Assembly: GCA_902802945.1 (NCBI GenBank) | Contig: CADCOC010000002.1 | Coordinates: forward strand, 9,853 to 73,852 | Reading direction: 5' to 3' | Length of the DNA: 64,000 bases | Source of the DNA: an uncultured bacterium | GTDB taxonomy: Bacteria > Verrucomicrobiota > Kiritimatiellia > RFP12 > UBA1067 | Shown: positions 3,214 to 39,386 of the stretch, piece by piece | How positions within the stretch are numbered: position 1 is the stretch's first letter | Layout: each line of letters begins with the position of its first letter | Position numbers and translations under genes: made by a program | Notes under the pieces: model-generated | Told to the model about the DNA's origin: nothing | Database searches by the model: none | Seen by the model: only the letters and a program-made list of their open reading frames with translations

Positions 3214-4496
3214 CGCGCAAGACGGGGCGCGCAGAGCGCGACCAACATGCGGAGCCGGTTTCGGCGTCGGAGCTGATCGTGCGCGTGGACATGAAGCGAA
3301 ATCCGGACGAGCTGCGCGCGGCGATGAACGCCGTGATCAAGTCCGTGCCGGGCGCGTCGTGCATGATCGGCTATCCGATCGCACACCGCATCAGCGCGGT
3401 CCTCTCCGGCAGCGCGGCGGAACTTTCGCTCAACATTTTCGGCGACAAGCCGGAGGACATCCGCGCCGCCGCCGCGCGCGCGAAGGAGCTGCTCGCGACA
3501 ATGCCGGAGGTCGGCGACTTCCAGGCCAACCGCGAGATCCTCGTCGACACCGTGAAGATCGACTACGACCGCGAGCGCCTCGCGCACGAGGGGTTGACGC
3601 TCGCCGACGCGGGCGAGCAGGTCTCCGCCGCGTTCAACGGACGCGTCCTCGGCACGGTCGCGGAAGGGCAGAACCGCCGCGACGTGACGCTGCGCATGGA
3701 GGAGGGCGAGGCGGACGAAGAGGCCGTGAAGAAACTCCTCATCAAGACGCGGACGGGACGGTTCGTGCGGCTCGACGACATCGCGGACGTCCACCGCGAA
3801 GAGGCGTCCAACCTCGTCATCCACGAGAACGGGCGCCGGCAGGCGCTCATCACGCTCAATCCCGCGCCCGGCGTCTCGGTGGGCGAGCTCGTCAGCTCGC
3901 TGGCGCATCGGCTCGGACCGGAGCTTGCCGCGTTCGGCTGCACGGCGGAGTTCGGCGGCACCTACCAGGCGAACATCAGCGCGCGCCGCACGCTCGTGAC
4001 GTTCTCGGTGGTCCTGCTCTTCGTCGTCTTCTTCGTCCTCCTCGTGGCCACGAAGGCGCCGATGCGCGCGTTCACGGTGATGGCGACGCTGCCGCTCGCG
4101 CTCGTAGGGGCCGTCGGCGCGGTGGCGCTCACGGGGCGGATCGTGTCCATCGCCTCGGCCGTGGGACTCATCACCGTGGCCGGCTTTGTGATCCGGAACG
4201 GGCTGTTGCTCGAGAACCGCTATGTCGAGCTAGAACGTGAAGGGCACGGGCCAATCGAGGCGATCCGTTTCGGCAGCCGCGAGCGGATGGTGCCGATCCT
4301 GATGACCTCGCTCACGACCGTGCTCGGACTCGTTCCGATCGTGGTGGCGCTGGACGTCCCGGGCGGCGAGATCCTTGCGCCGCTCGCGGCGGTGCAGCTC
4401 GGCGGGCTGGTCATCGCGACCGTCGCCGCGCTCGTCGTGGTCCCCGCGCTCTCCGTCCTCATCGCCCCGAAAGCCATGGTACTGGTTCCAAAATGA
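3183..4496 (+). pseudogene. C-terminal ~435-aa fragment of a CzcA/CusA-like (heavy-metal efflux family) RND efflux permease. The N-terminal half is missing.
   Basis: IGYPIAHRISAVLSGSAAELSLNIFGDKPEDIR...VLLFVVFFVLLVATKAPMRAF...LMTSLTTVLGLVPIVVAL matches the second periplasmic and transmembrane repeat of CzcA-type pumps. A full pump is about 1030 aa. The ORF begins mid-domain. Confidence 0.7.
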
Positions 4497-4546
4497 GAAG
4501 ATATTCCTAAGTTTGGAACCCGATAGCTGTATTTCACGGCTATCCG

Positions 4547-4576
4547 TTGCCAAAGTCGGATATATTTGATATACTT
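4547..4576 (+). promoter_or_regulatory. Promoter TTGCCA-N18-(TGa)TATACT upstream of the AAA ATPase gene
   Basis: -35 at 4547-4552, extended -10 TGATATACT at 4568-4576, then RBS AAGGAGG at 4592-4598. Confidence 0.45.
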
Positions 4577-4603
4577 TGGCTCGTAACGACAAAGGAGGTA
4601 CAT

Positions 4604-6019
4604 GTGATTGGAAGGAGAGACGAGTCAAAGGCGTTGAGGACGGCTTACGAGTCGTCCTACTCGGAATTCGTGACGCTTTACGGCCGCCGCCGAATAGGCA
4701 AGACGTTTCTGGTCAACGAAACCTTTGGATACGAATTTGCGTTCCATTGTGCCGGTTTGAAAGGCGAGGGGATGGCGCGGCAGCTTGACAACTTTCGTTT
4801 TGCGCTCCGCCGGTACGGGCATGACAAATGCCCCCGGTTGAAGAGCTGGCTTGAGGCTTTCTATGAATTGGAGATGCTTCTTGAACGGCAGGGTGGTGGG
4901 CGTAAGGTCGTGTTCATCGACGAGATGCCGTGGATGGACACGCACAAGTCCGGTTTTCTTGCCGCGCTTGAGGGGTTTTGGAACGGCTGGGCCACTTCAC
5001 GCAAGGACATCCTGCTCATCGCCTGTGGGTCCGCGACCTCGTGGATCGTGAGAAAAATTAACCGCAACAGGGGTGGACTCCACAACCGCGTCGGGGTTCG
5101 CATCAAGCTGAGTCCCTTTACGCTTGCCGAATGCGAGGAGTATGCGAACGAAAGGCGGCTTGGTTACGACAGGCTAAACATTGCGGAATGTTACATGGCA
5201 CTTGGCGGCGTCGCCTACTACTGGAACCAACTGGAGAAAGGAAAGAGTCCGGAACAGAATTTCAACAGACTCTTCTTCGGCCCCGGCGACGGGCTGAGAC
5301 TTGAGTTTGATGAACTGTATTCTTCTCTCTTCAGAAATCCCGAACCGTACATGCGCATCATTACGGCTCTGGACAAGCGGCGCTCCGGGTTGACCCGCGA
5401 CGAGATCATTTCGGAAATCGGCGCAAGCTGTGGCGGCGGAAAACTGTCCGAGATGCTGGCTGACCTTGAGGAGTGCGGATTCGTGCGGCTGGCGCGTCCG
5501 ATCGGCGGAAAGAATGGCGGCGTGTACCAGCTGGTGGACGACTTCTCGTTGTTCTATCTCCAGTTCGTGAAGCGTTGTCAATCAAGGGATGGCGACTACT
5601 GGACGGACGCAGTCTCGTCTGAGACCAAGAACAACTGGCGAGGGCTGGCCTTCGAGCGCCTTTGTCTGGCGCATGTTCGGCAGATCAAGTTCGCGCTAGG
5701 AATATCCGGCGTCCACACGGACGTGTACTCGTGGCGGACCGAACCTACAGACGAATCGCGAGGTGCGCAGGTCGATCTTCTCATCGACAGGAAGGACGGA
5801 ATCGTCAATCTCTGCGAGATGAAGTACTCCCGGGAGAAATACGCCATCTCAAAGGACGAACATGACAGACTGCAGAACAGGGTTGCGGCGTTCGGCAGAA
5901 TCGCAGGGCGCGGCAAGTCGGTACACCTGACGATGGTGACCACATGCGGGCTTGTGCACAACAAGTACTGGAACGACGTCCAGTCCGAGGTTGTGCTGGA
6001 TGACTTGTTCCGCGCTTGA
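4604..6019 (+). CDS. AAA family ATPase (archaeal-type ATPase_2 + DUF234 architecture)
   Basis: GTG start 5 nt after AAGGAGG. VIGRRDESKALRTAYESSYSEFVTLYGRRRIGKTFLV contains a Walker A motif, and the C-terminal DUF234-like region follows. GC content is noticeably lower than in the neighbouring genes. Confidence 0.75.
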   Translation: MIGRRDESKALRTAYESSYSEFVTLYGRRRIGKTFLVNETFGYEFAFHCAGLKGEGMARQLDNFRFALRRYGHDKCPRLKSWLEAFYELEMLLERQGGGRKVVFIDEMPWMDTHKSGFLAALEGFWNGWATSRKDILLIACGSATSWIVRKINRNRGGLHNRVGVRIKLSPFTLAECEEYANERRLGYDRLNIAECYMALGGVAYYWNQLEKGKSPEQNFNRLFFGPGDGLRLEFDELYSSLFRNPEPYMRIITALDKRRSGLTRDEIISEIGASCGGGKLSEMLADLEECGFVRLARPIGGKNGGVYQLVDDFSLFYLQFVKRCQSRDGDYWTDAVSSETKNNWRGLAFERLCLAHVRQIKFALGISGVHTDVYSWRTEPTDESRGAQVDLLIDRKDGIVNLCEMKYSREKYAISKDEHDRLQNRVAAFGRIAGRGKSVHLTMVTTCGLVHNKYWNDVQSEVVLDDLFRA

Positions 6020-10171: not shown

Positions 10172-13100
10172 ATGAACACGATAATTCGTAAAATCGGCAT
10201 GGGAGGGGGTAAAACCCTAGTTTCCCTCTTTTCCGGAATCGCGAAGGCCGCAAGAGGCGCAGCGCTTCCGCTGTTGATCGCGGCGAGCGCAATCCTTTCG
10301 GCACGAGGGGACGGCCTCGCCATCACGCCCGCCACGCTGCCGGACGGAATGGAGGGCGTGCAATACGACCAGTGGTTCACCGCCACCGGCGGCGGCGACA
10401 GCCCGAGTTGGCAGTGGTACACCGTGCCCGCCAGTTACGCCACAGCTTCGAGCACCTATCAGGTTTCGGGAAACGAAACGCCGCTCTGGGAAGGTCAGAG
10501 CCAGCGGGGCAACGTGGAATACACCTTGCCGTTCGCGTTCCCGTTCGGGGGCCGCATGATCGACAAGGTCTATGTCAGCCCCGTAGGCGCAATCCTCTTC
10601 GAGGACGATTTCATCGACGACAACTACGTTAGAAACAGCTCGCTCTACTACCGCTATGGCATCGCGGTGTTCTGGTGCGAAACGTCGAAGGTGGAGGCCT
10701 ACGTCGATACGAACGTCGCAAACGAGGTGTCGTTCCGCTTCGAGTCGTTTTCGACCGGCACCGGCACGTGGGCTGCGCGCGCGACGCTCAAGAAAGACGG
10801 CACCATCCGCTGCTCCTACCGGCAGACGGGCAACACCTTCTCGGACACGACGCGCGTGATCGGCGTCGCCTTCAGTGGCAACTACCTGCCGGTTGGCGCG
10901 GAGTCGGACGGCATCCCGGCGACGGACATCGTCTTCACCACCTACGGTCTTCCCGCCGGCCTCCAGTTCAGCTCAGGCTCATGGGATCCCGACACCTCCC
11001 TCTATCGCCCCCGTCTCTACGGCAAGGTCGCCGAGGCGTGCGACGTGAAGTTTGCCGTGCGCGTTTACGACGACAACGACAGTTCGGTGGCCGCAACCAA
11101 CTTCTATGCCTTCTCCATCGTCCGCAACCCGAACCGTCCGCCCGTGATCGACGCCTTCGCGCCCGCCGACACGAACGAGGTGATCTTCATCAACCTCGGC
11201 GACACGGTCAACTTCAACGTGGCCGTCACGGACGAGGCGGGCGATCCCTTCGACGTGAAGTGGGAGTTCCTGTCCAGAGGCAACTCCTACTATTCGACGC
11301 CCGAGACCGTCGGCACGGAGACGAACCTCGTCTTCGAGGCGACGCAGGCGCTCTACGTGATGCAGGACTCGGACTACCAGCCTCTTCTCCGGTGTACCGT
11401 CTCGGACGAGTGCTGGACGAACATCGTCACGTGGAAGGTCAACATTCGCCGCGACTGGCATGTGGACGCCGCCGCCGATCCCGGCACCGCCGACGGCTCG
11501 GCGGATCATCCGTGGCCGAGCCCGCACATGGGCGGCCTGCAGCGGGGCGACACGGTCTTCGTCGCGCCCGGCACCTACGTCTGGGGTCCGTCCGACAGCA
11601 CGCAGATCGGCATCGCGGGCGGCGTGACGTTCCGCTCCACCGGCAGCGCCGCCGACACGAAGTTCGTCTTCCAGAAGAAGGGCTACATCCAGGCCCGCTA
11701 CTACAAGAACTCGACGTTCCAGGGCTTCTCCTTCGACGGCATCTGCTTCTACAACTGCGACCTCGTCGACTGCGAGATCCGGAACTACGACAGCGCCAAC
11801 AGCTACGACGGCGCCATCCGCGGCTGCTCGCTCCTGCGCTGCTACGTGACCGGCGGCACGGGCAAATTCCACTGCTACCAGACCGACATCGTCGATTCCA
11901 CCATCGCCGGCAACACGATCAACGTCCCCTCCACCGAGAGCGCGGAGTGCCGTGCCGTCGGCAAGGACTGCACGCTGGCGAACTCCATCGTCGTGAACAA
12001 CCTCGCGCTCGACGGCGTGGAGGCCAACGTCTACACCGACACCACCTATAGCCCGACCGCGGTAACGAACTCCTGCACGATCCCCGCGATGACGAAGCTC
12101 GGCCCCGGCAACTACGAGGCGCAGCCGACGTTCGTCTCGCTCGCGGGCGGCGACCTGCGCCTGCGCGTCGGCTCGGCGTGCATCGACGCGGGCGACCCCG
12201 CGAACAACACGGGCGCGTACAAGGGCCCCGGCGTCGAGGGCTTTGCCGTATACGCGTTCACCGATCCCGTGCGCGGCATCTTCTCGGACGGATCTGAACT
12301 GCAGGTTGTGGCGGCAGGCGCGACGGCCTACGTCATGGTCAAGCCGCTCGCCGACCGCGCGTTCCTCGGCTGGGTGACGAACGGTGTCGAAGTCGCGGGC
12401 GTGACAACTTCGGAACTCGCCATCGAGAACATCGACTGCGACTACGAGGTCGAGGCGCTTTTCGAATACAGGGAATTCTGGGTAAATCCGACCGAGGCGG
12501 ACGACTCCGGCGACGGCACCGCCGCCGCGCCGAAGAAGACCATCGCTGCCGCCGCCGCGCTCGCGATCGACGGCGAGACGATCCGCCTCGCGGAGGGCAC
12601 GTTCGAGCCGTTCGCCCTCCTGGAATCGCCCAAGGTCACGCTCCTCGGCGCGGGCCCGGACAAGACCTTCATCGACGGCGGCGGCACGAACTGGTGCGTC
12701 CGTCTCGGCTCCAACGCGACGCTCAAGAACGTCGCCGTGGTCAACGGCAAATACACGAGCTGGTCCAGCTACGCGGGCGGCGTCACCGGCGGCACGATCG
12801 AGAACTGCGTCGTCTCGAACTGCGTCTCCAGCCAGTCGGCCGGCGGCGTGTCCGGCGCGACGGTCGTGAGCTGCCTCGTCACGGGCAACACCACCGACCA
12901 GGAATATGGTGGCTTCGGAGGCGGCGCGTATCAATGCAAGGTCTACAACTCCACCATCGTCGGCAACGTCCATTCGTTCAACTGCGCCGGCGGTGCCAGT
13001 GTCTGCTACCTCTTCAACAACATCATCACCGGCAACAAGTCCAACGGCGGCAGCGACACGTATGACGTCTACGACCCCAAGGACGCGAATTTCAGTTCCA

Positions 13101-16100
13101 GCGTCAGCTCGAACGTCGCGTATTCCGCCAACCTCATCGGCTCCGATCCGTGGTTCGTCGACGCCGCGAACGGCGACTACCGCCTGATCGCGGGCTCGCC
13201 CGCAATCGACGCGGGCGGCGAGGCGCTCGGCTTCGACTTCGAGCACGCGACCGACCTCTCGGGCGGCCGTCGCATCAAGAACGGTATCGTCGACTACGGA
13301 TGCTACGAAGGCGGCGTCGTGACCGGCGCGCCCGCTGCGCCCGTCGCGACCGGCTCGAGCGCCAAGGCCGTGAAAGGCATTCCGTTCACGTGGGAGGCCG
13401 TGCCGAATGCGGCGGAGTACCGCATCTACCGCGGAACCGCCAACAATGTCGCCGCCGCGACGCTCCTCGGCTCCACGACCGCCACCTCCTACCTCGACCT
13501 CTCTACGACGGGTGGCACGGACTACTTCTACTGGGTCTCGTCCTACAACACCACCTACGGCGAAAGCGAGAAGTGCGGACCCATCGCCGTGACGTCCTAC
13601 GCAGACCTCAAGATCGAAACGGCGTCGCTTCCCGCCGCGACGGAGGCCGTCCCGTATTCGGTGCAGCTCGAATGCTCCGGCAACGTGGGCGAAGCGACGT
13701 GGAGCCTGCCGTATACGGTGGTCACACGTGGCGAGGGCAGCACCTTCAACGGCGACGTGGGTGTCGTGGTCGGCGACGACTGGCCGGAGAAGGACACATC
13801 CTACCAACACAACCCCATCGTTACTCTCCCGTTCTCGTTCACGTGGTTCGGCGAGCAATACGACAAGGTGCGTCTCTCGAAGTTTGGCGCGCTCTATTTC
13901 GGCGTTGGCACAGGAGTGTCCGTTTCGTGGTCTCCCTGGGCCATCGACGAAGAGCCGAAGATTGTCGTCAACGAAGGTCCTTACTCTTCCTACTATTATG
14001 TCGAGACTTCGGAATTTCGCGTCGACAGTCAGGCGGACCATGTGACGATCGTCTGGAAGGGCACGTGCCACGGGAAAACCGTCGAGTTCTCCGCGACGCT
14101 CAATTCCGACAACACCGTCCGTCTCGCCTACGGCTCCAACGAGGTAGGAGCGTATGTGGCCTACTCCAATGGGTCGGCGGACACCGTGAATACGCTCTAC
14201 AGGGCGGAAGGCGACTTCTCCAACGCGGACGACTATGTGATCACGTGCCTCCCGAACGAAAGCCACCTCGTGCTCTCGGAGGGCGGGCTTCTCTCCGGAA
14301 TCGAGGACGACGCGGGAGAGTATCTGGTCTCGGTGCTTGTGACGGACGACGCGAACGGCGACACCGCCTGGAAGACCTTTGCGCTCACCGTGAACGTGAA
14401 CGCGAACAAGCGTCCCGTCATCGACGCGGTCACGCCTGACGAAGACGAGGTGCTCGTCCTCGCGGGCGACAGCCAGGAGTTCACGGTTACGGCGCACGAC
14501 CCCGAAAGCGCGGCGCTCAGCTACAGCTGGTATCTCGACGACGCGCTCGTCTCGACCGCCGGGGCGAACTGGACCTACGCCCCGACCGACGCCGACCGCG
14601 GGAGACATTCGCTCGTCTGCGAAGTGGCCGACGCGCTCTGGACAAATGGACAGGTCTACGCCGAGTGGGAAGTCACCGTGGGCGCCAAGCTTTACGTCGA
14701 CGTCGTCAACGGCACGACGAACGGAACGGGAACGGCCGAGTCGCCGTTCAAGACCCTGCAGCAGGCGGAATCGTGGATCGGCGGAGGTGAAACTGTGTTC
14801 GTCGCGCCGGGCACCTACGCGCCGGTTCGCGTGTGGGGCGGCGGGATGCCCGACCCCGTGACGTTCCGCGCGACGGGAAGCGCGGCGGAGACGATCATCG
14901 ACGGCGGCAGCACCAACATCTGCGTGGACGACTACCACTGCTCGAAGAACTTCACCTTCGTCGGCTTCACCCTGCGCAACGGCGGGGACGAGGATTATGC
15001 CGGCACGGCGTCCTATGGCGTCAACCTGAAGGACTGCGTTGTCACGGGCTGCAAGAGCTGGCGCTGCACGATCTACGGCGCGAACGTCGAGAACTGCCAG
15101 ATCTACGGCAACACGGCGCTTCGCCACGGCGCGGCCGTCGGCTTCTGCAACGTCGTCAACAGTCTCATCTACGGCAACACGTCCGGCGAAACCGGCGTCG
15201 TATACCGCTCCACCCTCGACCGTTGCACCGTCTACGGCAATACCGCCCTGGTCGGCGGCGGTCTGGACGGCCTCTCGACGGCTGACCACTCGATCGTCTG
15301 GGGCAATACCGCGACTGCTGACGCTTCCACGGCCAACTACGAGCCGTCGACGAACGGCGTGCAGTTCACGTACTCCTGCACGACGCCGCTGCCGGAAGGG
15401 GAGGGCAACATCGCGTCCGATCCGCTCTTCGTGAACGCGGCGGGCGGCGACTTCCACCTCGCGGACAGCTCGCCGTGCCTTGCGGCCGGCATGGGCTGCT
15501 ACGCCGAGGGCGGCGGGGAACCGGTCGTGACGCAGTTCACCGTGACGTTCGACGCGAACGGCGGCACGTGCGCCGAGGCCTCGCGCCAGGTCGTGTCCGG
15601 CGCGGCGGTCGGCACTCTCCCGACCCCGACGCGCACGGGCTACACATTTGCCGGCTGGTACACCGCCAAGACGGGCGGGACGCAGGTTACGGCCGCGACG
15701 ACGGTGACGGCGGCCGTCACGTGGTACGCGCGTTGGACGGAACTTCCTCCGGCGTATACGTTGACGATTGAGGACGGCGTGCTGAAGGGCTACACGGGCG
15801 ACCTCCCGGCGACGCTCGCGATTCCGGCGACGGTGACGGCGTTCGGCGCAAACCTCTTCAAGGGCGCGACGGCGCTCACCGCCGTAACGGGCGGCGCGAA
15901 TGTGACGGCCTGCGGCGCGGGCGCGTTCCGCGACTCGGGCATCTGGAAGGCCGCGCCGAACGGACCGGTCGTGGTGTGCGGCGTGCTTGTGGGCTGGAAG
16001 GGGACGGTTCCCGCAACGGCGACCGTGCCATACGGCGTGAAGGTGATCGCGGATGGCGCGCTTGCGGGAGCCGCGAACCTCGCGACGCTCTATCTGCCCG

Positions 16101-19100
16101 ATTCGCTCGTCTCCATCGGCGCGGGCGCGTTCAAGGACTGCACGAAGCTCGACGACGTGTTCGGGCTTGAAGACGGCGTGACCGTTGCGGACAACGCCTT
16201 CGAAGGCACGCTCCGCAACACCTTCCGCTTTACGTGGTCTGGCCTGGTCGTGACCGGCTTCAAGGGTCCGCTCCCTGCCGCGCTCGTCATACCCGCCAAC
16301 GCCACCGGCATTGGCGTGAATGCGTTCAAGGGGCAGACGACGATTACCTCGCTGACAATCGAGGGCGAGAACGCCGTCAACGTCGGCGCAGGCGCGTTTG
16401 AGGGATGCACGGCGCTCGCGACGGCCACCATCGGCGGCGGCGCGACAATTGCCGCGACTTCGTTCAAGGGCTGCGCGGCGCTGACGAATCTCACCGTCGG
16501 CGGTTCGGCCACAATCGCCGCCGAATCGTTCAAGAATTTCGCGGCGCTGAAGACCGTTTCCATCGGTGGCGACGCAACAATCGGCGCGTCGGGGTTCGCG
16601 GGCTGCACGGCGCTTAATACTTTCACGGCCGGCGGTGGCGCAACGGTCGGCGCGTCCGCGTTTGAGGGCTGCACGACCCTTGAGACTTTCACGGCCGGCG
16701 ACACCGTTTCCATCGCCACGAATGCCTTCAAGGGTTGCGTCGCGCTTGCCACCGCAGACTTCGGGAAAGTTTCCGCACTTGGCGAGAGTGCGTTCGAGGG
16801 CTGCTCGTCGCTCGCATCGCTTGAGCTGGCGGAGGGCATCGAGGAGATCGGTGCGGCGTCGTTCAAGGGCTGCGCCTCGCTTAAGGCGATCGATCTCCCG
16901 GCGTCCGTCACGACGATCGGCGTGTCCGCCTTCGAGGGATGCTCGAAGCTGGCGACCGTCACGGGCGGCGAGAACGTGCGCGTTATCCGCACGGACGCCT
17001 TTGCCGGAACGGCGTGGTACGACGCGGCCCCTGCGGAGGGCTTCGAGGAAGTCTCGCTCGGCCACGTGCTCTTGCGCGTGAAGGGCGATGTCCCCGCCTC
17101 TTACGAGATCTCGTCGAACGTCTGGACGGTCGCGAACGGCGCGTTCGCTGGCGTCACCACGCTCACCGAACTCTATATCGGCACGGAGGTGGTCTCGCTC
17201 TGGGATCGCGCGTTTGCGGGTTGCACCTCGCTCGGCAGCGTGACCATTCCGAGCGGCTGCCGCGAGTTCGGCGACTACCTCTTCGACGGCTGCACGTCGC
17301 TCACCAACGTCTTCTTCCGCGGCCACGCACCGACGAACGACGTGCCGCACCTCTTCGCGGGCACGCCCGAGACGCTGAAGGTCCGCATCAAGGAAGGAAG
17401 CCGCGGATGGGTATATCCCGGCGCCGATTCCGACTACCGTCCCGCCCGCTGGCCATACCAGACGGCGGATGGTAGAAGGTGGCAGCGTGTCGCGGACGAC
17501 CTGAACCGCGCCGTTTACGAGCCGGACGACGAGCCCGGTGTCATTCGTAGTGTCATCGTCGACGGCATCATCACGAACGACACGATATGGGTCGGCGGCA
17601 GGGTGTACGAGATTCAGCGCAGTTGCTCTGTCAAAGGGAACGCGACGCTGACGGTCGAGGCCGGCGCAATCGTAAAGTTGCCGTTTGGGAGAGTTTACGC
17701 CTATGACCCAAGAGGGTTGAACGTCTATGATTCGGGCTCGCTTGTGGTCAACGGCACGCTCGCCAATCCCGTGGTGTTCACATCGATCCGCGACGACTCG
17801 TGGGGCGGCGACACGAACGGCGACGGCAACCGCTCCGAACCGTATCCCAGCGAATGCGGGGGCGTGTATGTTTATTCACGGGATGCAACTGTTCACGCGA
17901 CCTACGCGAAGTTCCTGTATGGGCAAGCCGTAAACACCTTTAGCGCTACAGCGTGTCTGATGAGCTATGGCCGGACCAACACCCTTTACGGTTGCGAGTT
18001 CAGCCATTCGGCGATGGACGGATATTTCGGCTGCGGACGGTTGGAGAATTGCGTCTTTACCGACTGCGACCGCGGACTTGTCTCTGTGGATAGGGGTGTT
18101 GTGGCCGTGAACTGCGTCGCATACGGCAACCGTATCGGTTTCTTCTCGCACACGTCGTACATGTACATAACGAACTGCATTTCCGCGTTCAACTCGGAAT
18201 ACGGCATCTCGGGCGACGGTAGCGCCGTCTTTTCCACGCGGAGCTGCCTCTGGACTCCCGGCGGCGAGAACACACGTTATAAGAATGGCGGGAAATCGTG
18301 GAACACCTACAACGTCGACAACATCGAGGCCGATCCGCTCTTCCTCGACGCGGAGAACGGGGACTTCCGGATTTCCGCGAGTTCGCCATGCGTGGACGCG
18401 GCCTGGGGCGACGTGGCGCCGGAGTATGACTACTACGAGCAGCCGCGCATGGATGTGAGGTTCGTCGAGAACACGGGCAAGCCGAACGCGGAGGGAATCT
18501 ATCCCGACATCGGCATCTACGAGGTGCCGGGCACGACGGAGCGTCCCGTGATGAATCTTGAGGTGGAGAGCGTGTCGTTCACGCCCGCGACGGTTGCGCC
18601 GGGCGAGACGCTGGCCGTCACCTACACGATGAAGAACGCGGGAGACGCGGCGGCGACGGGGTCGATCCGCGACGTGGTGCGCATCAAGTCCGCCGCGAAC
18701 GGCGGCACGATGGTGGCTGGCACGGTGACGCAGAACTACAGCCTTGAAACGAACGCCGTCGCCACGTTCACCGCGCGCGTAACGATGCCCGCCGCTCCGG
18801 CCGGCAACTGGTACGTGGGCATCGACGTGAACCCGAACCGCGACGTGTTCGAGCAGAACCTCCAGAGGAATTCGATGTGGACGGAAAATACGGTCGAGGT
18901 GACGCTGCCGGGTCTGACCACTTCGTCCTCGACAAGCGTGACCATCCCGGCCGGAACGACGAAGGGGTGGGCGTTGATCGATCTGCCGGCCGAGGGCGGC
19001 GTGGTGACGGTCACGGGCGCGAACGCGGCGGCGATCCGGGCGATGGTCGCGAACGGACACATGCCGACGGTGGTGATGAACGACGCGGCGTCCTTCGCGC

Positions 19101-22100
19101 AGGGCACGACAACGGCCGTGCTCGTGGTGCCGGCGCGCGCGGCGGGCGAGACGATGTACCTTGCCGTCGAGAACACGGGGATTTCGTCCGCGACGGTGAC
19201 GGTCAAGGTCGAGAAGCTGACGACGCAGCTGTGGTCGGTCTATCCCGAGATTGCGGCGAACGTGGGCGACATGGGCTTCACGTTCACGGGCGCGGGGCTG
19301 ACGGCGACGAGCGACATCCGTCTCGGCGGCATCAAGGCCAAGAGCGTGACGGTCGTAGACTCCGCGAACGTGTACGCTGTCTTCGACATCCACAACATCG
19401 CGGCAGACCGGTACTACGACGTGACGGCGGACGGCAAGACGCTCCGCGACGCGGTGTACATCAACAAGGTGGCGAAGGGGCCGATCCTCGAAGCGAAGCT
19501 GGAACTGCCGGAGCGCACGCGCGACAACCGCATCTATACGGGCTACGTGGTCTATGAGAACACGGGCGACACGCAGATGAACGTGCCGATGTTCATCGTG
19601 AAGCGCGGCAAGGGCGACACGACGACGATGCTGGGGGCGTACGACGCGGAGACGCTGACCTCCAACGCCGTCGTCGTGGCGGGCATCGGCTCGACGCATC
19701 CGGCGGGCATCCTGAAGCCGGGCGACACGGGCCGCCTGCCGTTCAAGTTCAAGCCGGTGGGCGACTACAATCTCTCGCTCAGGAAGTGGGTCAAGACGAA
19801 GGACGACGTGGCGGCGATGGCCACGCGCCTCAACCTCCGCGGCCGCACCGTCTGGAACGGTGACGACATCTACTACTCGGCGCTCAACGTGCGCAACGGC
19901 ACCCCCGTGGCGGGCGTCAGCGGATGGTGTCTCGACTCGCGCACCCGCGAGCCGCTGGAGGGAATCGCGCTCGTATTGGTGGCGACGAACACCGAGGCGT
20001 CGGCGGGAACCGCCAATAGGCGCGCATTCAGCACAACGACCGACGCAAACGGATACTTCCAGTTCGGTCTGCTGCCGGACGGACTCTACGGCTTCACGGC
20101 GTCCGGCAGGGCGCGGGTGGTTTCCACGGCGACCGTCGAGGTCTCTGGCCAGAAGGATGTCAACGGCGTCGAAGTCCTGGCGTTGCCGCCGACGAGGATA
20201 CACGGCTACGTCGTCGGCTCCGACGGCACCCCGGTGCAGTACGGGCATGTCGTGCTGCGCGAAGGGGACATGATGATAGGCGAGACGACCGAGACGGACG
20301 GCTTCGGCGCGTATTCGTTCGAGGGCATCGGCGACGGCACATACGACGTCCTGGCCGAGGCGATCGGCGTGTACGGTGCGGCGATAAAGACGAACGTCGC
20401 GGTGAACGTGACGAACGTCGACGTCAGAGTCGACCTCGAAATGCCGGCGCTCGCGAGCATTGCGGGCACGGTGACGCCCGGCGGCGCTCCCGTGGACGGC
20501 GGTATCGTGTCGGTGCTGTCGCTGGCGGACGGTGAGACGACGACCGTCGGGGTCGACACGAACGGCACGTATTCCGCAGACGGCGTCACGCCGGGCGAAT
20601 GCGAAGTGAAATACTCCGGTGGCGGAAAGTTCTCGCGCATCGCGCTGACGGTCGCGGCCGGCGAGAACAAGCTCGACATCGCCGCGCAGGCCGCGCCGAT
20701 CTTCGGGGCGACGTCCGCCAGGGCGTTCGTGGAGGCGGGCGCGTCCTTCGAGGCGACGTTCTGCGTCCGCGAGCCGTCGACGAACGACGTGTCCTACGCC
20801 TGGGACTTCGGCGACGGAAGCGCAACCGTCGTCACCGCCGCCCCTGTCGTGTCGCATGAATTCACCAGGACGGCGGATGAGAACCGGTTCACGGTCAAGC
20901 TGACCGTCACGAGGGCCGACGGGACGAGCGAGATATGCGTGGTGCGCGAGGCGTTCAGCCTGCTGGCGCCGATCGAGACGGAATACCAGGACAACGCGAT
21001 CATCCTCTCGGTGGCGAACCGCCACAACGCGGGGACGCTGGAGTTCGTGGACTTCGACCCGAACGGCGCGGCCGAGGGCACTGTCATGCGGCTCAAGGGC
21101 GAGGCGGCGATTCCGCTCGACGGAGCTGTCGTGATGGTCGGCTACATAGACGAGAAGACCGGCGACGTCACGAGCGGCATCCGCAGGATCGTCTCGCACA
21201 CGACCGGTACCGACGGGGTGGTCACGTGCACGACGGAGGGCGAAGGGCTCAGTGCCGTGTTCAAGCAGATCGGAGTCAGCACGTCCGACGCCTTGGAGGT
21301 GACGCCGGAGGAGGAACAGGAGTCCGTGGCGTTCAAGGTCAAGTACGCGAATAAATTTAAAGGCGCCATCAGCGACGCCGCGGCGGCGGCGGTAAGCGGA
21401 CTGGGCGAGCTCGCGAAGAAGACCGCTTCGCATCTCAACAAGGGCGGAAAGCTGATCGGTGATGTCAACCTGTCGCTCGGGTGCAAGGTCGGAGAAGACT
21501 GCCTTGCGGGGCGTTTCTCGACGGAAACCGCGAAGATCGAGCGCGAAATCACAGTCCCGACATACGACGAGCCGGACAGCTTCTACAATATGTACAGCGG
21601 CAACGAGTGGGTGCCCTACCGCACGAAGATATACACCAACAACGTGTGGCGCTTCACGTACACGATGCATGTGGACGTCACGCCGTATCTCCAGGCCAAC
21701 GGATCGTTTGGGGTGGGTCTCGAGAAGAGGACGGACAAGTGCGAACTGGACCTTTCCAAGTACCTGAAGAAGAAAAAGGATAAGAATAAGAAGGAAGAAG
21801 TCCAAGAGGTCGACGCCGGACCGGAGGTGCCGATAGTGATCGCGGGGGTCCCCATCGCGAAGTTACGCCCGGTGCTGCAGTTCCGTCCGTATCTCTTCGG
21901 CGGCGTCAACGGTGCGGCGCGGATGAACCTGAGGTTCCACGGCGACCTCGCGTTCACCATTTCGGTCGAGAACGACATAAGGATGCCGACGGCCTCCTGC
22001 GCGGCGCCTGGATTCAAGATCGACAAGTGGATCGAGAACGTCTCGGACGAGTTCTCCGGGTCGTTCGAGGGCGGCGTTGGGGTCGTGCTGGCGTTGAAGT

Positions 22101-24685
22101 TCACGATGGCGCAGTTCGTGGACGTCCTGACCGGCCTCGAGGCTGCCGCACAGTTCAAGGTCGAGAAGAAGTCGAAGGAGCCGCTTATGTTCGAGATGGG
22201 CGCTTCGCTGAACTACATCCTCGAGGCGACGCTCCTCGACCACGAGTTCTTCAAGAAGTTCCTGTCGAGGATCACGATCACGAAATTCTCCGGAACGATC
22301 TACAACATTTTCCGCTACAGGTGGTACGCGCCGAGGCCTGGATTCCTGTGGGAGCAGGAGACCGGCAACGAGAACGACGGCTACGTCGTCCGGTTCGAGG
22401 ACTGGACCGAGCCCGCATACTCCGCCTGGCTCGACAGCGGCTGGAGCGACGGGCTGGCGAAGACGATAAACAAGGTGACGTCGTTCGTAGGCATGTCCAA
22501 GCGTGTCTCGCGCGAAAGGTGGTCAGTCAAGGAATACCCGTTCAAGGAGCTGAAGTGGATGTACGGCGACGAGAAGTCGCTGTTCTCGCGCTGGACGCCC
22601 CGCTACGATCCCGGCGGCCAGCACTGGCACAACTATCCCAAGGCCGGTAAGTACACGGTGCAGCTCGCGCCGTATTCCGACTTCGGCACGTGGCTCCTGA
22701 CCAGCTCCTGCGAAGAGACGATCACGCTCAAGGAGATGGAGGAAGAAGAAGAAAAGGAAGAAGAGAAGGAAGGGGAAAGGAAGTCCGAGGTGGTGGACGA
22801 GAAGGGTGACAGAACCCAGAAATCGGTTGACCCGAACGAGGTGGTCGGACCCGAGGGCGAGGGTGCGAACCGCAGCGTGAAGCCGGGCGACTGGATGAAC
22901 TACACCGTATACTTCGAGAACAAGGCGGATGCGGACGCCGCCGCGCAGGAGGTGTTCGTGGACAGCCAGCTCAGCCAATACCTCGACTGGAGCACGTTCG
23001 AGATGGGCACGGTCTCCATCGCCGGGCAGATCGACAACGGACTCGACGGCCTGAACGCCTACGACCTGATCGCGTTGGGGTCTGCCTCGAGCGAGATGGA
23101 GCAGACGAACGGCCTGTACAGGGTGCGCACTGAAGTCCAGTTCGACGCCGCGACCGGCGCCGCAACCTGGTACATGCGCATAGTCGATCCGTCCAAGACC
23201 GACGGAGAGCAGTGGCCGGACGATCCTGACGCGGGCATCCTCAGTCCGAACGTGACGGTGCCGGAAGGCGAGGGCTACATCACCTACCGCGTGCGGGTGC
23301 GCGAGGACGCACCGGGGAACGTGAGGATCGACAACTCCGCGAACATCGTGTTCGACTACAACGCCCCGATCGTCACGGACCCGGCGTGGTGGAACACGGT
23401 GTTCGAGATGGCGACGGTGCCCATGACGTCGGACGGCGTGACTACGAATCTCCGGTTCGTGGTCGGCGAGCCCTACGGCGAATTGCCGACGCCCGCGCCG
23501 CGCGACGGCTGGACGTTCGAGGGGTGGTTCACGGGGCCGAACGGCACGGGACGCCGCGTGACGGCCGAGACCATCGTCCAATCCGGCGACCATCTCTATG
23601 CATACTGGAAGGCGGTCTGTCGCCTCTACGGCGAGTTGACGGGGGCGGCGCCGACGACAGCGGCAAGCGAGTACTACGGCTACGTCGTGAACACGAACGG
23701 AAACGTGATCATGGGCACGATCCAGGTGAAGGTGGGCAAGCCCAACAAGAAGACCGGTCTCGCCGCCGTGAAGGCGACGCTGATCGGGACGGACGGCAAG
23801 AAGAAGACCCTCAAGGCGGCCGAGAAGGGCAAGGCCAAGATCGAGGGCGACGGCCCGACCACGATCCCGCTCGCAGGCGGAGACGCCTGCGAAGTGATCC
23901 TCGGCGCGAAGGGCATGGGCGGCACGTATGGCGCGTATGTCATCTACGGCGCGCGGAACGTGTTCGCGTCGAAGGACGCGGCGGACAAGTCCGTGGCGGC
24001 GGCGGCACTCGCCAAGTGGAAGGGACCGGTGAACTTGGCGTGGCGGCCGGACGCGACGGAGCGCGTCCCTCCCTATCATACGCTGTCGGTGACCATCGCC
24101 GCGAAGGGCAAGGCGAAGGTGGCCGGGACGCTTGCGGACGGCACGAAGGTGAGCGCGAAGGGGCAGCTGATCGTGGGAGAGGAATGGGGCTGCGTGCCGG
24201 TGGTGGTCTCGAAGAAGGCAAAGCTTGCGTTCAACGTGTGGCTGCCGGTGGCCGCGACAAGCGCGGCCCTCCCGGTAGTGGTTGGGCTTGGCGAGGACGT
24301 GAGGGTCGGGAAGCCGGGGACGTTGAAGGCGGAGGCGACGTTCAAGCTGGGTGGCGAGATGGGCGACGCCAAGTACGGGGCCTACTTGCCGGATGGCGTG
24401 CCGGTGACGGGCGGCGCGAAGTGGAAGCTGCCGAAGGCGGGCAAGGTGCAGCTCGCCAAGGACGGCACCGTGGACGCGGCGAAGGCGGGCGAGAATCCGT
24501 CCGCGCTGAAGCTCACGTACAAGGCGAAGGACGGTTCGTTCAAGGGCTCGTTCAAGGCGTACGCGGATGTGGGCGGCAAGCCGAAGGGCACGACCGTGAA
24601 AGTGACGGGCGTGCTGGTCAACGGTGTCGGCTACGGCGCGGCCACGGTCAAGAAGTCCGGCGGAGTGGCGGTGATGGTGGAGTAG
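10172..24685 (+). CDS. Giant (4838 aa) modular cell-surface protein / adhesin. It has a signal peptide and an N-terminal Ig-like region.
   Basis: ATG 10172 follows 'aaaaaggag'. Modules: 3x DUF1565/pectate-lyase-like right-handed beta-helix; Listeria-Bacteroides (Flg_new) repeats (GYTFAGWYT...WYARW); BspA-type LRR repeats at 15.8-17.3 kb; CarbopepD_reg-like domains; PKD (WDFGDGS); an acidic EEEEKEEEKE linker; DUF11 (VDPNEVVGPEGEG...PGDWMNYTVYFEN); a Lys-rich C-terminal region. Confidence 0.85.
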   Translation: MNTIIRKIGMGGGKTLVSLFSGIAKAARGAALPLLIAASAILSARGDGLAITPATLPDGMEGVQYDQWFTATGGGDSPSWQWYTVPASYATASSTYQVSGNETPLWEGQSQRGNVEYTLPFAFPFGGRMIDKVYVSPVGAILFEDDFIDDNYVRNSSLYYRYGIAVFWCETSKVEAYVDTNVANEVSFRFESFSTGTGTWAARATLKKDGTIRCSYRQTGNTFSDTTRVIGVAFSGNYLPVGAESDGIPATDIVFTTYGLPAGLQFSSGSWDPDTSLYRPRLYGKVAEACDVKFAVRVYDDNDSSVAATNFYAFSIVRNPNRPPVIDAFAPADTNEVIFINLGDTVNFNVAVTDEAGDPFDVKWEFLSRGNSYYSTPETVGTETNLVFEATQALYVMQDSDYQPLLRCTVSDECWTNIVTWKVNIRRDWHVDAAADPGTADGSADHPWPSPHMGGLQRGDTVFVAPGTYVWGPSDSTQIGIAGGVTFRSTGSAADTKFVFQKKGYIQARYYKNSTFQGFSFDGICFYNCDLVDCEIRNYDSANSYDGAIRGCSLLRCYVTGGTGKFHCYQTDIVDSTIAGNTINVPSTESAECRAVGKDCTLANSIVVNNLALDGVEANVYTDTTYSPTAVTNSCTIPAMTKLGPGNYEAQPTFVSLAGGDLRLRVGSACIDAGDPANNTGAYKGPGVEGFAVYAFTDPVRGIFSDGSELQVVAAGATAYVMVKPLADRAFLGWVTNGVEVAGVTTSELAIENIDCDYEVEALFEYREFWVNPTEADDSGDGTAAAPKKTIAAAAALAIDGETIRLAEGTFEPFALLESPKVTLLGAGPDKTFIDGGGTNWCVRLGSNATLKNVAVVNGKYTSWSSYAGGVTGGTIENCVVSNCVSSQSAGGVSGATVVSCLVTGNTTDQEYGGFGGGAYQCKVYNSTIVGNVHSFNCAGGASVCYLFNNIITGNKSNGGSDTYDVYDPKDANFSSSVSSNVAYSANLIGSDPWFVDAANGDYRLIAGSPAIDAGGEALGFDFEHATDLSGGRRIKNGIVDYGCYEGGVVTGAPAAPVATGSSAKAVKGIPFTWEAVPNAAEYRIYRGTANNVAAATLLGSTTATSYLDLSTTGGTDYFYWVSSYNTTYGESEKCGPIAVTSYADLKIETASLPAATEAVPYSVQLECSGNVGEATWSLPYTVVTRGEGSTFNGDVGVVVGDDWPEKDTSYQHNPIVTLPFSFTWFGEQYDKVRLSKFGALYFGVGTGVSVSWSPWAIDEEPKIVVNEGPYSSYYYVETSEFRVDSQADHVTIVWKGTCHGKTVEFSATLNSDNTVRLAYGSNEVGAYVAYSNGSADTVNTLYRAEGDFSNADDYVITCLPNESHLVLSEGGLLSGIEDDAGEYLVSVLVTDDANGDTAWKTFALTVNVNANKRPVIDAVTPDEDEVLVLAGDSQEFTVTAHDPESAALSYSWYLDDALVSTAGANWTYAPTDADRGRHSLVCEVADALWTNGQVYAEWEVTVGAKLYVDVVNGTTNGTGTAESPFKTLQQAESWIGGGETVFVAPGTYAPVRVWGGGMPDPVTFRATGSAAETIIDGGSTNICVDDYHCSKNFTFVGFTLRNGGDEDYAGTASYGVNLKDCVVTGCKSWRCTIYGANVENCQIYGNTALRHGAAVGFCNVVNSLIYGNTSGETGVVYRSTLDRCTVYGNTALVGGGLDGLSTADHSIVWGNTATADASTANYEPSTNGVQFTYSCTTPLPEGEGNIASDPLFVNAAGGDFHLADSSPCLAAGMGCYAEGGGEPVVTQFTVTFDANGGTCAEASRQVVSGAAVGTLPTPTRTGYTFAGWYTAKTGGTQVTAATTVTAAVTWYARWTELPPAYTLTIEDGVLKGYTGDLPATLAIPATVTAFGANLFKGATALTAVTGGANVTACGAGAFRDSGIWKAAPNGPVVVCGVLVGWKGTVPATATVPYGVKVIADGALAGAANLATLYLPDSLVSIGAGAFKDCTKLDDVFGLEDGVTVADNAFEGTLRNTFRFTWSGLVVTGFKGPLPAALVIPANATGIGVNAFKGQTTITSLTIEGENAVNVGAGAFEGCTALATATIGGGATIAATSFKGCAALTNLTVGGSATIAAESFKNFAALKTVSIGGDATIGASGFAGCTALNTFTAGGGATVGASAFEGCTTLETFTAGDTVSIATNAFKGCVALATADFGKVSALGESAFEGCSSLASLELAEGIEEIGAASFKGCASLKAIDLPASVTTIGVSAFEGCSKLATVTGGENVRVIRTDAFAGTAWYDAAPAEGFEEVSLGHVLLRVKGDVPASYEISSNVWTVANGAFAGVTTLTELYIGTEVVSLWDRAFAGCTSLGSVTIPSGCREFGDYLFDGCTSLTNVFFRGHAPTNDVPHLFAGTPETLKVRIKEGSRGWVYPGADSDYRPARWPYQTADGRRWQRVADDLNRAVYEPDDEPGVIRSVIVDGIITNDTIWVGGRVYEIQRSCSVKGNATLTVEAGAIVKLPFGRVYAYDPRGLNVYDSGSLVVNGTLANPVVFTSIRDDSWGGDTNGDGNRSEPYPSECGGVYVYSRDATVHATYAKFLYGQAVNTFSATACLMSYGRTNTLYGCEFSHSAMDGYFGCGRLENCVFTDCDRGLVSVDRGVVAVNCVAYGNRIGFFSHTSYMYITNCISAFNSEYGISGDGSAVFSTRSCLWTPGGENTRYKNGGKSWNTYNVDNIEADPLFLDAENGDFRISASSPCVDAAWGDVAPEYDYYEQPRMDVRFVENTGKPNAEGIYPDIGIYEVPGTTERPVMNLEVESVSFTPATVAPGETLAVTYTMKNAGDAAATGSIRDVVRIKSAANGGTMVAGTVTQNYSLETNAVATFTARVTMPAAPAGNWYVGIDVNPNRDVFEQNLQRNSMWTENTVEVTLPGLTTSSSTSVTIPAGTTKGWALIDLPAEGGVVTVTGANAAAIRAMVANGHMPTVVMNDAASFAQGTTTAVLVVPARAAGETMYLAVENTGISSATVTVKVEKLTTQLWSVYPEIAANVGDMGFTFTGAGLTATSDIRLGGIKAKSVTVVDSANVYAVFDIHNIAADRYYDVTADGKTLRDAVYINKVAKGPILEAKLELPERTRDNRIYTGYVVYENTGDTQMNVPMFIVKRGKGDTTTMLGAYDAETLTSNAVVVAGIGSTHPAGILKPGDTGRLPFKFKPVGDYNLSLRKWVKTKDDVAAMATRLNLRGRTVWNGDDIYYSALNVRNGTPVAGVSGWCLDSRTREPLEGIALVLVATNTEASAGTANRRAFSTTTDANGYFQFGLLPDGLYGFTASGRARVVSTATVEVSGQKDVNGVEVLALPPTRIHGYVVGSDGTPVQYGHVVLREGDMMIGETTETDGFGAYSFEGIGDGTYDVLAEAIGVYGAAIKTNVAVNVTNVDVRVDLEMPALASIAGTVTPGGAPVDGGIVSVLSLADGETTTVGVDTNGTYSADGVTPGECEVKYSGGGKFSRIALTVAAGENKLDIAAQAAPIFGATSARAFVEAGASFEATFCVREPSTNDVSYAWDFGDGSATVVTAAPVVSHEFTRTADENRFTVKLTVTRADGTSEICVVREAFSLLAPIETEYQDNAIILSVANRHNAGTLEFVDFDPNGAAEGTVMRLKGEAAIPLDGAVVMVGYIDEKTGDVTSGIRRIVSHTTGTDGVVTCTTEGEGLSAVFKQIGVSTSDALEVTPEEEQESVAFKVKYANKFKGAISDAAAAAVSGLGELAKKTASHLNKGGKLIGDVNLSLGCKVGEDCLAGRFSTETAKIEREITVPTYDEPDSFYNMYSGNEWVPYRTKIYTNNVWRFTYTMHVDVTPYLQANGSFGVGLEKRTDKCELDLSKYLKKKKDKNKKEEVQEVDAGPEVPIVIAGVPIAKLRPVLQFRPYLFGGVNGAARMNLRFHGDLAFTISVENDIRMPTASCAAPGFKIDKWIENVSDEFSGSFEGGVGVVLALKFTMAQFVDVLTGLEAAAQFKVEKKSKEPLMFEMGASLNYILEATLLDHEFFKKFLSRITITKFSGTIYNIFRYRWYAPRPGFLWEQETGNENDGYVVRFEDWTEPAYSAWLDSGWSDGLAKTINKVTSFVGMSKRVSRERWSVKEYPFKELKWMYGDEKSLFSRWTPRYDPGGQHWHNYPKAGKYTVQLAPYSDFGTWLLTSSCEETITLKEMEEEEEKEEEKEGERKSEVVDEKGDRTQKSVDPNEVVGPEGEGANRSVKPGDWMNYTVYFENKADADAAAQEVFVDSQLSQYLDWSTFEMGTVSIAGQIDNGLDGLNAYDLIALGSASSEMEQTNGLYRVRTEVQFDAATGAATWYMRIVDPSKTDGEQWPDDPDAGILSPNVTVPEGEGYITYRVRVREDAPGNVRIDNSANIVFDYNAPIVTDPAWWNTVFEMATVPMTSDGVTTNLRFVVGEPYGELPTPAPRDGWTFEGWFTGPNGTGRRVTAETIVQSGDHLYAYWKAVCRLYGELTGAAPTTAASEYYGYVVNTNGNVIMGTIQVKVGKPNKKTGLAAVKATLIGTDGKKKTLKAAEKGKAKIEGDGPTTIPLAGGDACEVILGAKGMGGTYGAYVIYGARNVFASKDAADKSVAAAALAKWKGPVNLAWRPDATERVPPYHTLSVTIAAKGKAKVAGTLADGTKVSAKGQLIVGEEWGCVPVVVSKKAKLAFNVWLPVAATSAALPVVVGLGEDVRVGKPGTLKAEATFKLGGEMGDAKYGAYLPDGVPVTGGAKWKLPKAGKVQLAKDGTVDAAKAGENPSALKLTYKAKDGSFKGSFKAYADVGGKPKGTTVKVTGVLVNGVGYGAATVKKSGGVAVMVE
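24248..24275 (+). repeat. In-frame palindromic mini-repeat R4 (GGTGGCCGCGACAAGCGCGGCCCTCCCG), copy 1. It lies inside the giant gene and encodes ...VAATSAALP...
   Basis: The 28-nt string is identical at 29413-29440. The core palindrome GGCCGCG-acaag-CGCGGCC also occurs at 62650-62668. Confidence 0.8.
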
Positions 24686-34466: not shown

Positions 34467-34467
34467 T
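34459..34467 (+). promoter_or_regulatory. Extended -10 TGGTATAAT, overlapping the stop of the upstream gene and ahead of the ATPase gene
   Basis: 'ataatatggtataatact', then 'gaaagga' and ATG 34498. Confidence 0.35.
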
Positions 34468-34497
34468 ACTTCCCGGTTTAGAAAGGAATTCTTGCCA

Positions 34498-36425: not shown

Positions 36426-36497
36426 AGAAAGAGGGAAAATTGAAATGAACGGGCGTGCGCGCATCATTCTTCATACTTGTGCTACATGGGTCGAAAA

Positions 36498-36506
36498 TGG
36501 TATAAT
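36498..36506 (+). promoter_or_regulatory. Extended -10 TGGTATAAT upstream of the DUF3791/DUF3990/LRR operon
   Basis: 'aaaatggtataattaaa', then 'gagggaag' and ATG 36533. Confidence 0.4.
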
Positions 36507-36532
36507 TAAAGCCGTCTGAGGGAAGTGACTGA

Positions 36533-39383: not shown

Positions 39384-39386
39384 GGG

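Follow-up and report, generated by a model that had tools for sequence, protein, structure and literature searches.

A giant gene for a predicted surface protein of an uncultured Kiritimatiellia bacterium is a recombination mosaic, with an orphan module and an unannotated family of C-terminal domains

The pneumococcal genes pspA and pspC and the neisserial gene tbpB are mosaic surface-protein genes that are maintained by homologous recombination. Type V autotransporters have a C-terminal 12-stranded outer-membrane beta-barrel that ends in an aromatic residue. The Kiritimatiellae of the gut and the rumen are abundant and almost all uncultured, and we know of no account of how they display surface proteins. 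Here we describe a giant gene on the forward strand of a 64,000-nucleotide stretch of contig CADCOC010000002.1, from an uncultured Kiritimatiellia bacterium, most likely of the rumen (we call the whole stretch the window, and coordinates refer to it). In a gut bacterium of the Planctomycetes-Verrucomicrobia-Chlamydiae group, a giant and modular protein that resembles adhesins is ordinary. Two aspects of this gene go beyond the original prediction, which was made from the sequence alone: an orphan core of ~365 amino acids (aa) that lies on a sharply bounded, exchangeable 2.85-kb cassette, and a folded C-terminal domain (CTD) from an unannotated family. Both would belong to known kinds, namely surface-protein genes that are mosaics and C-terminal domains for sorting or anchoring.

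The gene, at 10172-24685 (+), is a single unbroken open reading frame (ORF); from its ATG (10172) through its stop codon (24685), it has 4,838 codons. The original prediction of a giant modular protein was right, except that its length of 4838 aa included the stop codon, and the protein has 4,837 aa. The N-terminus, MNTIIRKIG...LLIAASAILSARG (also quoted as MNTIIRKIG...LPLLIAASAILSARG), resembles a Sec signal, as read from the sequence. Most of the domains that had been named (beta-helix, leucine-rich repeat or LRR, PKD, CarbopepD, DUF11, and Flg_new) were found by per-domain searches with Pfam profiles (Table 1). Because of this domain content, the protein is probably a surface adhesin-like molecule. 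It would be a Sec-exported, multi-domain protein of the cell surface, and its beta-helices, immunoglobulin-like (Ig-like) domains, BspA-type LRRs, and Flg_new repeats would suit a protein that adheres to particles, glycans, or other cells. Neither Pfam nor NCBIfam has a family for aa 1-480, for aa 3597-4189 (the Lys-rich module), or for aa 4460-4837 (the tail).

The tail had been described as ~320 aa of repetitive, Lys/Ala/Gly-rich sequence. Instead, it is a folded and conserved domain of ~340-370 aa. We found no internal repeats in the last ~370 aa (self-BLAST gave no off-diagonal match, and there were no tandem repeats), and the AlphaFold model, from an alignment of 91 sequences, is confident, with a predicted local distance difference test (pLDDT) of 94.6 and a predicted template-modeling score (pTM) of 0.89. 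The absence of repeats and the confident fold rule out a low-complexity or repetitive tail. The modeled fold is all-beta with two longer helices. There are at least 223 homologous proteins, and the named ones are from metagenome-assembled genomes of Kiritimatiellae. The family has no match in Pfam, NCBIfam, or the sequences in PDB (for the last 378 aa of the window’s protein, the best hits were SnoaL, E = 0.13, and FlgF, E = 0.11), and our literature searches found no description of this CTD in Kiritimatiellae. A profile comparison to the lipocalin-like “GKISGK...” units of another module-containing protein (P0124) was not significant (probability 3.4%).

In a scan of one genome per species, we identified at least 148 relatives of the CTD, and we kept 77 loci from 29 genomes. 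These genomes were all assembled from gut or rumen metagenomes (rumen, horse, goat, yak, deer, and human gut), and among the 77 loci kept, there are up to seven or more copies per genome. In all copies but one, the CTD ends within 0-14 residues of the stop codon. Its end is conserved (...IKKVGSVPVTIE, also quoted for the family as ...GYGTATIKKVGSVPVTIE). Among the complete ORFs that carry the CTD, 44 of 47 have an N-terminus that resembles a signal peptide. The proteins range from ~420 to 4,837 aa, and the regions upstream of the CTD are diverse: they include LRR_5, Flg_new, BACON, CARDB, DUF7619, Wzt_C, and Pro/Thr linkers. When we clustered all of the ORFs in the 77 loci, we did not find any conserved neighbor or partner gene. 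Many exported proteins of gut Kiritimatiellae are thus marked by the CTD, whose family is unannotated and confidently folded.

The CTD is also basic, while the regions upstream of it are acidic. In the window’s protein, the CTD has an isoelectric point (pI) of 9.67 and a net charge of +23, and the upstream part has a pI of 4.6 and a net charge of -197. The median pI of the CTD across the family is 9.2, and at least 16 of its lysines are nearly invariant. Furthermore, the identity of the CTD is incongruent with the identity of the region next to it, which implies that CTDs are shuffled between proteins. For example, compared to the window, the homologous gene at locus L010 is 97% identical across the adjacent DUF7619-Flg_new segment and 57% identical in the CTD; for the gene at locus L002, the corresponding values are 46% and 84%.

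Because the CTD is found only at the C-termini of proteins with signal peptides, no other part of the protein is as good a candidate for an element that sorts or anchors it. The original prediction that the tail has no sorting signal is therefore not supported, as the domain itself might be the signal. It is not a type V autotransporter: the last 378 aa have no Pfam match, they are Lys-rich and include helices, and they end in ...VAVMVE (...VTIE in the family). The last 378 aa have no match in Pfam or NCBIfam that would indicate the Por_Secre_tail of the type IX secretion system (T9SS), but whether Por_Secre_tail models are present in those libraries was not checked. PEP-CTERM, LPXTG, and other short sorting tags, which have a hydrophobic helix and a basic tail after the C-terminal motif, do not fit either, as the last 40 aa contain no such helix and there is no NCBIfam match. 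We propose that the CTD keeps exported proteins at the cell surface or sorts them to it, probably via an anionic or lipid component of the envelope. The conserved lysines, together with lobes that resemble lipid- or lipopolysaccharide (LPS)-binding beta-barrels, would contact the anionic outer membrane. The CTD is an autonomous unit: many acidic passenger regions that are unrelated to one another carry it, and it is exchanged independently of them.

The main rival to anchoring is that the CTD is an adhesive head that binds a ligand, with a lipocalin- or TbpB-like barrel, and that these proteins are held to the cell by other means. Several observations weigh against anchoring or fit a ligand-binding domain equally well. 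A whole-chain comparison of the CTD model to PDB with Foldseek was not significant (E >= 0.006, TM-score <= 0.22); the best match was TbpB (probability 0.63, TM-score 0.20), followed by RseB, LolA, and lipocalin-like proteins (0.1-0.3). These weak matches include ligand-binding barrels (TbpB, fHbp, and lipocalin-like). Some small proteins (such as P0040) have nothing but a Pro/Thr linker between the signal peptide and the CTD, and the CTD is confined to host-associated genomes, from the gut or rumen. Also, the interior of the CTD is highly variable among close homologs while its ends are conserved. On the other hand, in the copies that we examined, the CTD is strictly C-terminal regardless of the architecture upstream. 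No other anchor is apparent: the sequence has neither a lipobox nor a C-terminal hydrophobic helix, and the last 378 aa have no match in NCBIfam or Pfam. The near-invariant lysines, and the contrast between a basic CTD and acidic upstream regions, would suit a constant anionic component of the envelope. A ligand-binding head is possible, but we consider it less likely than anchoring.

The CTD is one of two variable blocks in the giant gene. The gene’s closest homolog is L010, from the rumen genome RUG10619, and the identity between the two switches abruptly along the gene (Table 1). A block of ~2.85 kb that encodes aa ~3247-4199, and then the CTD, are diverged, while the flanks are nearly identical; at the edges of the block (~19910 and ~22770), nucleotide identity falls from 100% to ~70% and then returns to 100%. 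The block encodes three CarboxypepD_reg domains and the PKD domain, followed by the module, with its small beta-rich domain (domain A), orphan core, and PKD-like domain, and it extends into the conserved acidic linker. Its left breakpoint is at the start of the first CarboxypepD_reg domain and its right breakpoint is within the acidic linker. In the flanks, synonymous divergence (dS) between the window and L010 is 0.04-0.06; the values for the block and the CTD are 0.6-1.0 and 0.85. The high dS in the block implies that this is an old, diverged allele and not a site of rapid point mutation.

A third sequence, P0123, has the reciprocal pattern. Within the block, L010 and P0123 are 85-100% identical; outside of it, they are only 47-88% identical, while L010 and the window are 98-100% identical. 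This three-way pattern is what recombination predicts. If we call the window’s versions type W and L010’s versions type B, then the window has module type W with CTD type W, L010 has module type B with CTD type B, and P0002 has module type W with CTD type B. Three of the four possible combinations are seen, and the module block and the CTD assort independently. Clearly, the giant gene is a recombination mosaic, and the module block and the CTD have been exchanged between gene lineages. The block would be replaced as one unit, by homologous recombination between diverged lineages of the gene. We infer that the block is an exposed determinant of binding specificity that is kept polymorphic in the population by recombination.

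Two caveats weigh against this account. First, the DNA downstream of the L010 gene (7126-8278 of that locus, ~1.15 kb) is unlike that of the window, in which the next gene is RecJ. L010 may therefore not be a strict ortholog but a recent paralog or a rearranged copy. Second, all of the sequences that we compared are metagenome assemblies, and any single contig could be chimeric. Conceivably, the entire mosaic is an artifact, with contigs stitched together across strains or paralogs at identical stretches and no recombinant molecule behind them. Consistent with this, the scaffold of P0001 has frameshifts and an odd identical patch of 440 nt. However, even a chimera would require the two different cassettes to have identical sequence on both sides, 1.4 kb and 0.55 kb long, so a shared backbone, or very recent relatives, must carry both types of cassettes. 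Also, the window, L010, P0123, and P0002 come from different contigs, the reading frame is intact in each, and the breakpoints coincide with a domain boundary and a linker. We think that an assembly artifact is unlikely.

The patch lies at 4256-4695 of the P0001 scaffold (locus L078) and is 99.8% identical to 22913-23352 of the window. The remainder of the P0001 gene is 67-83% identical to the window, and the end of the gene on that scaffold is frameshifted. The patch could reflect gene conversion or a chimeric assembly.

We also considered whether the block is the target of a diversity-generating retroelement (DGR). In a DGR, the variable region is short (~100-200 bp) and differs from a template repeat nearby by substitutions that are specific to adenines. 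Here, the divergence extends over 2.85 kb and includes indels as well as saturated synonymous and non-synonymous changes. There is no second copy of the module in the window, although we did not search specifically for a reverse transcriptase. By these features, the block does not fit a DGR target.

Within the block, the original prediction of a module with no obvious family was correct: aa 3597-4189 has no match in Pfam, NCBIfam, PHROGs, or the sequences in PDB. It was also correct about the upstream PKD domain and the acidic linker (EEEEKEEEKE) that bracket the module, but the match to a PKD-like domain on the downstream side is weak (E = 0.15). In L045, a remote variant of the module, the equivalent of aa 4058-4186 scores 25.9 bits (E = 1e-5), just under the Pfam cutoff, and PKD-containing proteins match the module’s profile at positions 526-584. 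The coding sequence of the acidic linker has, at 22745-22783, a tandem repeat of 12 nt that is rich in GAA.

Copies of the module are rare. Searching 5.8 billion proteins with a word index gave two matches, and an exhaustive search of 1.84 billion representative proteins with a hidden Markov model gave three full-length relatives (P0001, P0123, and P0124). Two more copies, L010 and L003, were found in species genomes. A further word-index search of proteins, with the alignment of the module, found only P0002 and added nothing. Across all of the searches, we have six full-length copies, which represent four types, with pairwise identities of 39-51%. Two more remote variants in syntenic positions (L027 and L045) retain domain A or the PKD-like domain, but their cores cannot be aligned, and they have no match in Pfam, PHROGs, or PDB sequences.

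Domain A is the best-conserved part of the module, and it is the only part that is detectable in L027 (independent E = 1e-9). In the core, alignments show conserved islands (GGKLIG...LGC....C, EKRTDKCEL, and PVLQFRP) that are separated by variable loops. The Lys-rich run that had caught attention, KYLKKKKDKNKKEE, is an insertion in one of these loops: it is absent from the type of P0001 and L010 and is different in P0124, while the KKKK run of L003 is in another loop. The poly-Lys stretch would be a variable surface loop. AlphaFold’s model of the module, from an alignment of three sequences, has a mean pLDDT of just 37.6. Values of 50-70 are reached only in the PKD-like part and in domain A, which is modeled with beta strands (pLDDT 50-69). 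Despite the profile search of 1.84 billion proteins, the core belongs to no known family, as judged by sequence comparison.

The poor model weighs against a simple reading of the core as a binding domain, as with a pLDDT of 37.6, the core could still have a known fold, for example that of an enzyme or a pore-former. The core might be a diverged effector (a pore-forming toxin or an enzyme) that is delivered by the adhesin, rather than a domain for binding specificity. The model includes long beta-hairpins (E184-200, E220-247, and E320-337), the L027 and L045 variants have long stretches of alternating residues, and EKRTDKCEL and the CxxxxxC pair are conserved across the types of modules. But the hairpins are unreliable (pLDDT < 50), and even permissive searches of Pfam, NCBIfam, and PDB matched no toxin or peptidase family. 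For known pore-forming or peptidase domains in particular, there was no sequence match to aa 3597-4189 in Pfam, NCBIfam, PHROGs, or PDB with any of five module variants. Furthermore, the module is internal, with Ig-like domains on either side, while polymorphic toxins have terminal ones, and the next gene downstream is RecJ rather than a small immunity-like gene. An effector is improbable, and we favor a determinant of binding specificity.

The module had also been described as Lys-rich, with a lower GC content and a composition unlike the rest of the gene. It is indeed Lys-rich, but it is just as rich in Glu (K 7.6%, E 8.1%), and with a net charge of -10, it is not basic. The GC content does drop, to 0.54-0.62 at ~21.35-22.85 kb, compared to a mean of 0.646 for the giant gene. 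However, this is not unique within the gene: there are similar dips at ~13.7-14.1 kb and 17.5-18.3 kb. The GC content at the first, second, and third codon positions is 0.536, 0.385, and 0.844 in the core and 0.578, 0.491, and 0.869 across the gene. Since the fall is confined to the first two positions, while the GC content at the third position (GC3) is maintained at ~0.87 along the whole frame, the dip reflects the amino-acid composition. It would stem from a usage of amino acids that is rich in K, E, N, F, and Y. A recent horizontal insertion from a donor with lower GC, akin to the low-GC island at 33-40 kb, would account for the module’s 0.54-0.62 versus 0.65 gene-wide, but it is very unlikely, as the core’s GC3 of 0.844 resembles that of the rest of the gene and its neighbors, the truly foreign island has a GC3 of 0.55-0.58, and all types of modules share one composition. 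The analysis of codon positions thus rejects a foreign origin. Elsewhere in the gene, in the N-terminal half of the third beta-helix (aa ~2450-2650), GC3 is 0.66-0.78 at ~17520-18000, and this anomaly exceeds any in the Lys-rich module.

As for the rest of the giant protein, it includes an internal duplication: aa 47-800 and aa 1100-1870 are 29% identical (E = 2e-34). Each copy of this supermodule is comprised of, in order, an Ig-like domain, ~250 aa without a family in Pfam or NCBIfam, a PKD-like domain, and a right-handed beta-helix. The ~250-aa part (within 10310-15781) has the motif LPFxFxFxG..(Y)DKV.(V/L)S..GA(I/L).F. We found no match in Pfam or NCBIfam for aa 1-480. In the LRR region, the score for LRR_5 (PF13306) is 209 bits, in four stretches, compared to a cutoff of 27.7 bits. 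Opposite the giant gene, there are two long antisense ORFs, at 10979-17350 (-) and 17876-21805 (-), of 2,123 and 1,309 aa. Shadow ORFs are common in high-GC coding sequence, and we take both of these to be shadow ORFs and not genes.

The similarity of this LRR region to a separate LRR gene at 37599-39383, within the low-GC island, had suggested an exchange of modules. When we compared them, they were 29-32% identical, which is typical of the repeat family, and GC3 was ~0.76-0.86 in the giant gene’s LRR region and 0.58 in the separate gene. Given the low identity and the different codon usage, we reject a recent exchange between 15.8-17.3 kb and 37.6 kb, and the resemblance is only at the level of the family. 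Exchange of modules is real, but it is in the CarboxypepD_reg-PKD-orphan block and the CTD and not in the LRR modules.

Table 1. Features of the giant gene, its nucleotide identity to the homolog L010, and other genes in the window
Feature	Position in window	Strand	Residues (aa)	Evidence or remark
N-terminal Sec-type signal region	10172..10309	+	1-46	basic start, hydrophobic core LPLLIAASAIL, then SARG
Supermodule x2, with an extra beta-helix between the copies	10310..15535	+		internal duplication; weak matches to DUF1565, DUF5123, Beta_helix, PKD_4
First Flg_new (Listeria-Bacteroides repeat)	15536..15730	+	1789-1853	E 1.6e-18
BspA-type LRR region (LRR_5)	15749..17326	+	~1860-2385	E 2.2e-62
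Third beta-helix, with a DUF5123-like end	17369..18421	+	~2400-2750	Pfam matches
CARDB	18554..18871	+	2795-2900	E 1e-4, right at the Pfam cutoff
Variable recombination block, ~2.85 kb	19910..22769	+	~3247-4199	identity switch vs. L010
CarboxypepD_reg x3	19919..20671	+	3250-3500	E 8e-20, three stretches
PKD domain	20690..20932	+	3507-3587	PKD_4 E 1.7e-13
Module domain A, small and beta-rich	20960..21244	+	3597-3691	65-78% identity between module types
Orphan core (~365 aa)	21245..22342	+	3692-4057	no family match; AlphaFold pLDDT 22-49
Lys run KYLKKKKDKNKKEE	21758..21799	+		variable loop insertion
Degenerate PKD-like domain with insertions	22343..22729	+	4058-4186	PKD_4 E 0.15, 12.5 bits vs. 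cutoff of 27
Acidic linker KEMEEEEEKEEEKEGERKSEVVDEKGDRTQK	22730..22822	+		EEEEKEEEKE at 22742-22771
DUF7619 x2 (DUF11-like)	22823..23371	+	4218-4400	E 3e-20
Second Flg_new	23429..23599	+	~4420-4476	E 4e-5
Conserved basic CTD, second variable block	23582..24682	+	4471-4837	homologs, fold, position
Compared to L010	18470-19909			99-100% nt identity
Compared to L010	~19910-22769			59-82% nt identity
Compared to L010	22770-23309			99-100% nt identity
Compared to L010	23310-23579			93-97% nt identity
Compared to L010 (CTD)	23580-24685			62-82% nt identity
RecJ gene	starts 24719			next gene after the giant ORF
DUF3990 gene	33398-34042			low-GC island
AAA_15/AAA_21 ATPase	34492-35802			low-GC island
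ORF without an assigned family	35799-36425			low-GC island
BspA-LRR protein	37599-39383			low-GC island; last 250 aa without a Pfam match

The low-GC island extends over ~33400-40200, with a GC content of ~0.51 and a GC3 of 0.55-0.58, versus 0.78-0.91 in neighboring genes. Just beyond it, the gene at 40173-42914 (+) encodes a protein with TSP3 repeats and Flg_new_2 that ends in Dockerin_1, and the adjoining gene at 42916-44307 (+) encodes a Cohesin domain. The two genes form a cohesin-dockerin pair.

Overall, the best explanation is that the giant gene encodes an exported mosaic surface protein, with an exchangeable block for specificity and a CTD that retains the protein at the surface or sorts it there. 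We would put the probability that this is correct as a whole at roughly 60%. A bolder version is that the CTD represents a new class of sorting domain and is part of an undescribed sorting or anchoring system of gut Kiritimatiellae, with its own machinery or envelope ligand, and that the orphan core is a new fold that acts as an exchangeable specificity head. This is speculative, and we offer it only tentatively. A conserved, multi-copy, and strictly C-terminal domain gives a handle for predicting which proteins are displayed on the surface, and it is a candidate display tag or LPS-binding module. That a cassette with sharp bounds is swapped inside a gene of 14.5 kb suggests that these bacteria keep different versions of an exposed region circulating, which points to selection by phages, by host immunity, or for substrate specificity.

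How does this protein compare to known systems? With BspA-type LRR proteins and Listeria-Bacteroides-repeat surface proteins (such as BspA of Tannerella and the B-repeat of InlB from Listeria), it shares LRR_5 and Flg_new, both with strong scores. Those proteins are likewise secreted and multi-domain, with an architecture that is typical of adhesins; for the giant protein, binding is only predicted. Unlike them, the giant protein is far larger, and it adds three beta-helices, the orphan module, and a different C-terminal element. For the CTD, the lobes of TbpB and fHbp and the lipid-binding half-barrels of RseB/MucB, LolA, and lipocalin-like proteins are recurrent, if weak, themes in the Foldseek results, and the CTD is all-beta, with runs of strands followed by a helix. 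Unlike these proteins, the CTD has no lipobox; nor does it have sequence similarity to them, and the structural matches are not significant.

The mosaics of pspA, pspC, and tbpB resemble the giant gene in that deeply diverged blocks lie within nearly identical flanks, with raised synonymous divergence in the blocks and independent assortment. Unlike in those genes, the block here is 2.85 kb and spans seven domains, one of which is an orphan, and there is no silent cassette in the 64-kb window. The T9SS CTDs of Bacteroidota (Por_Secre_tail) are Ig-like domains of just ~80-100 aa, unlike the ~340-370 aa here, which match neither Pfam nor NCBIfam. As we see it, the likeness to T9SS CTDs is one of logic, not of family: both are found only at the very C-terminus, in many Sec-exported proteins whose upstream regions are unrelated, and both are present in multiple copies per genome, within one clade, with no fixed gene neighbor.

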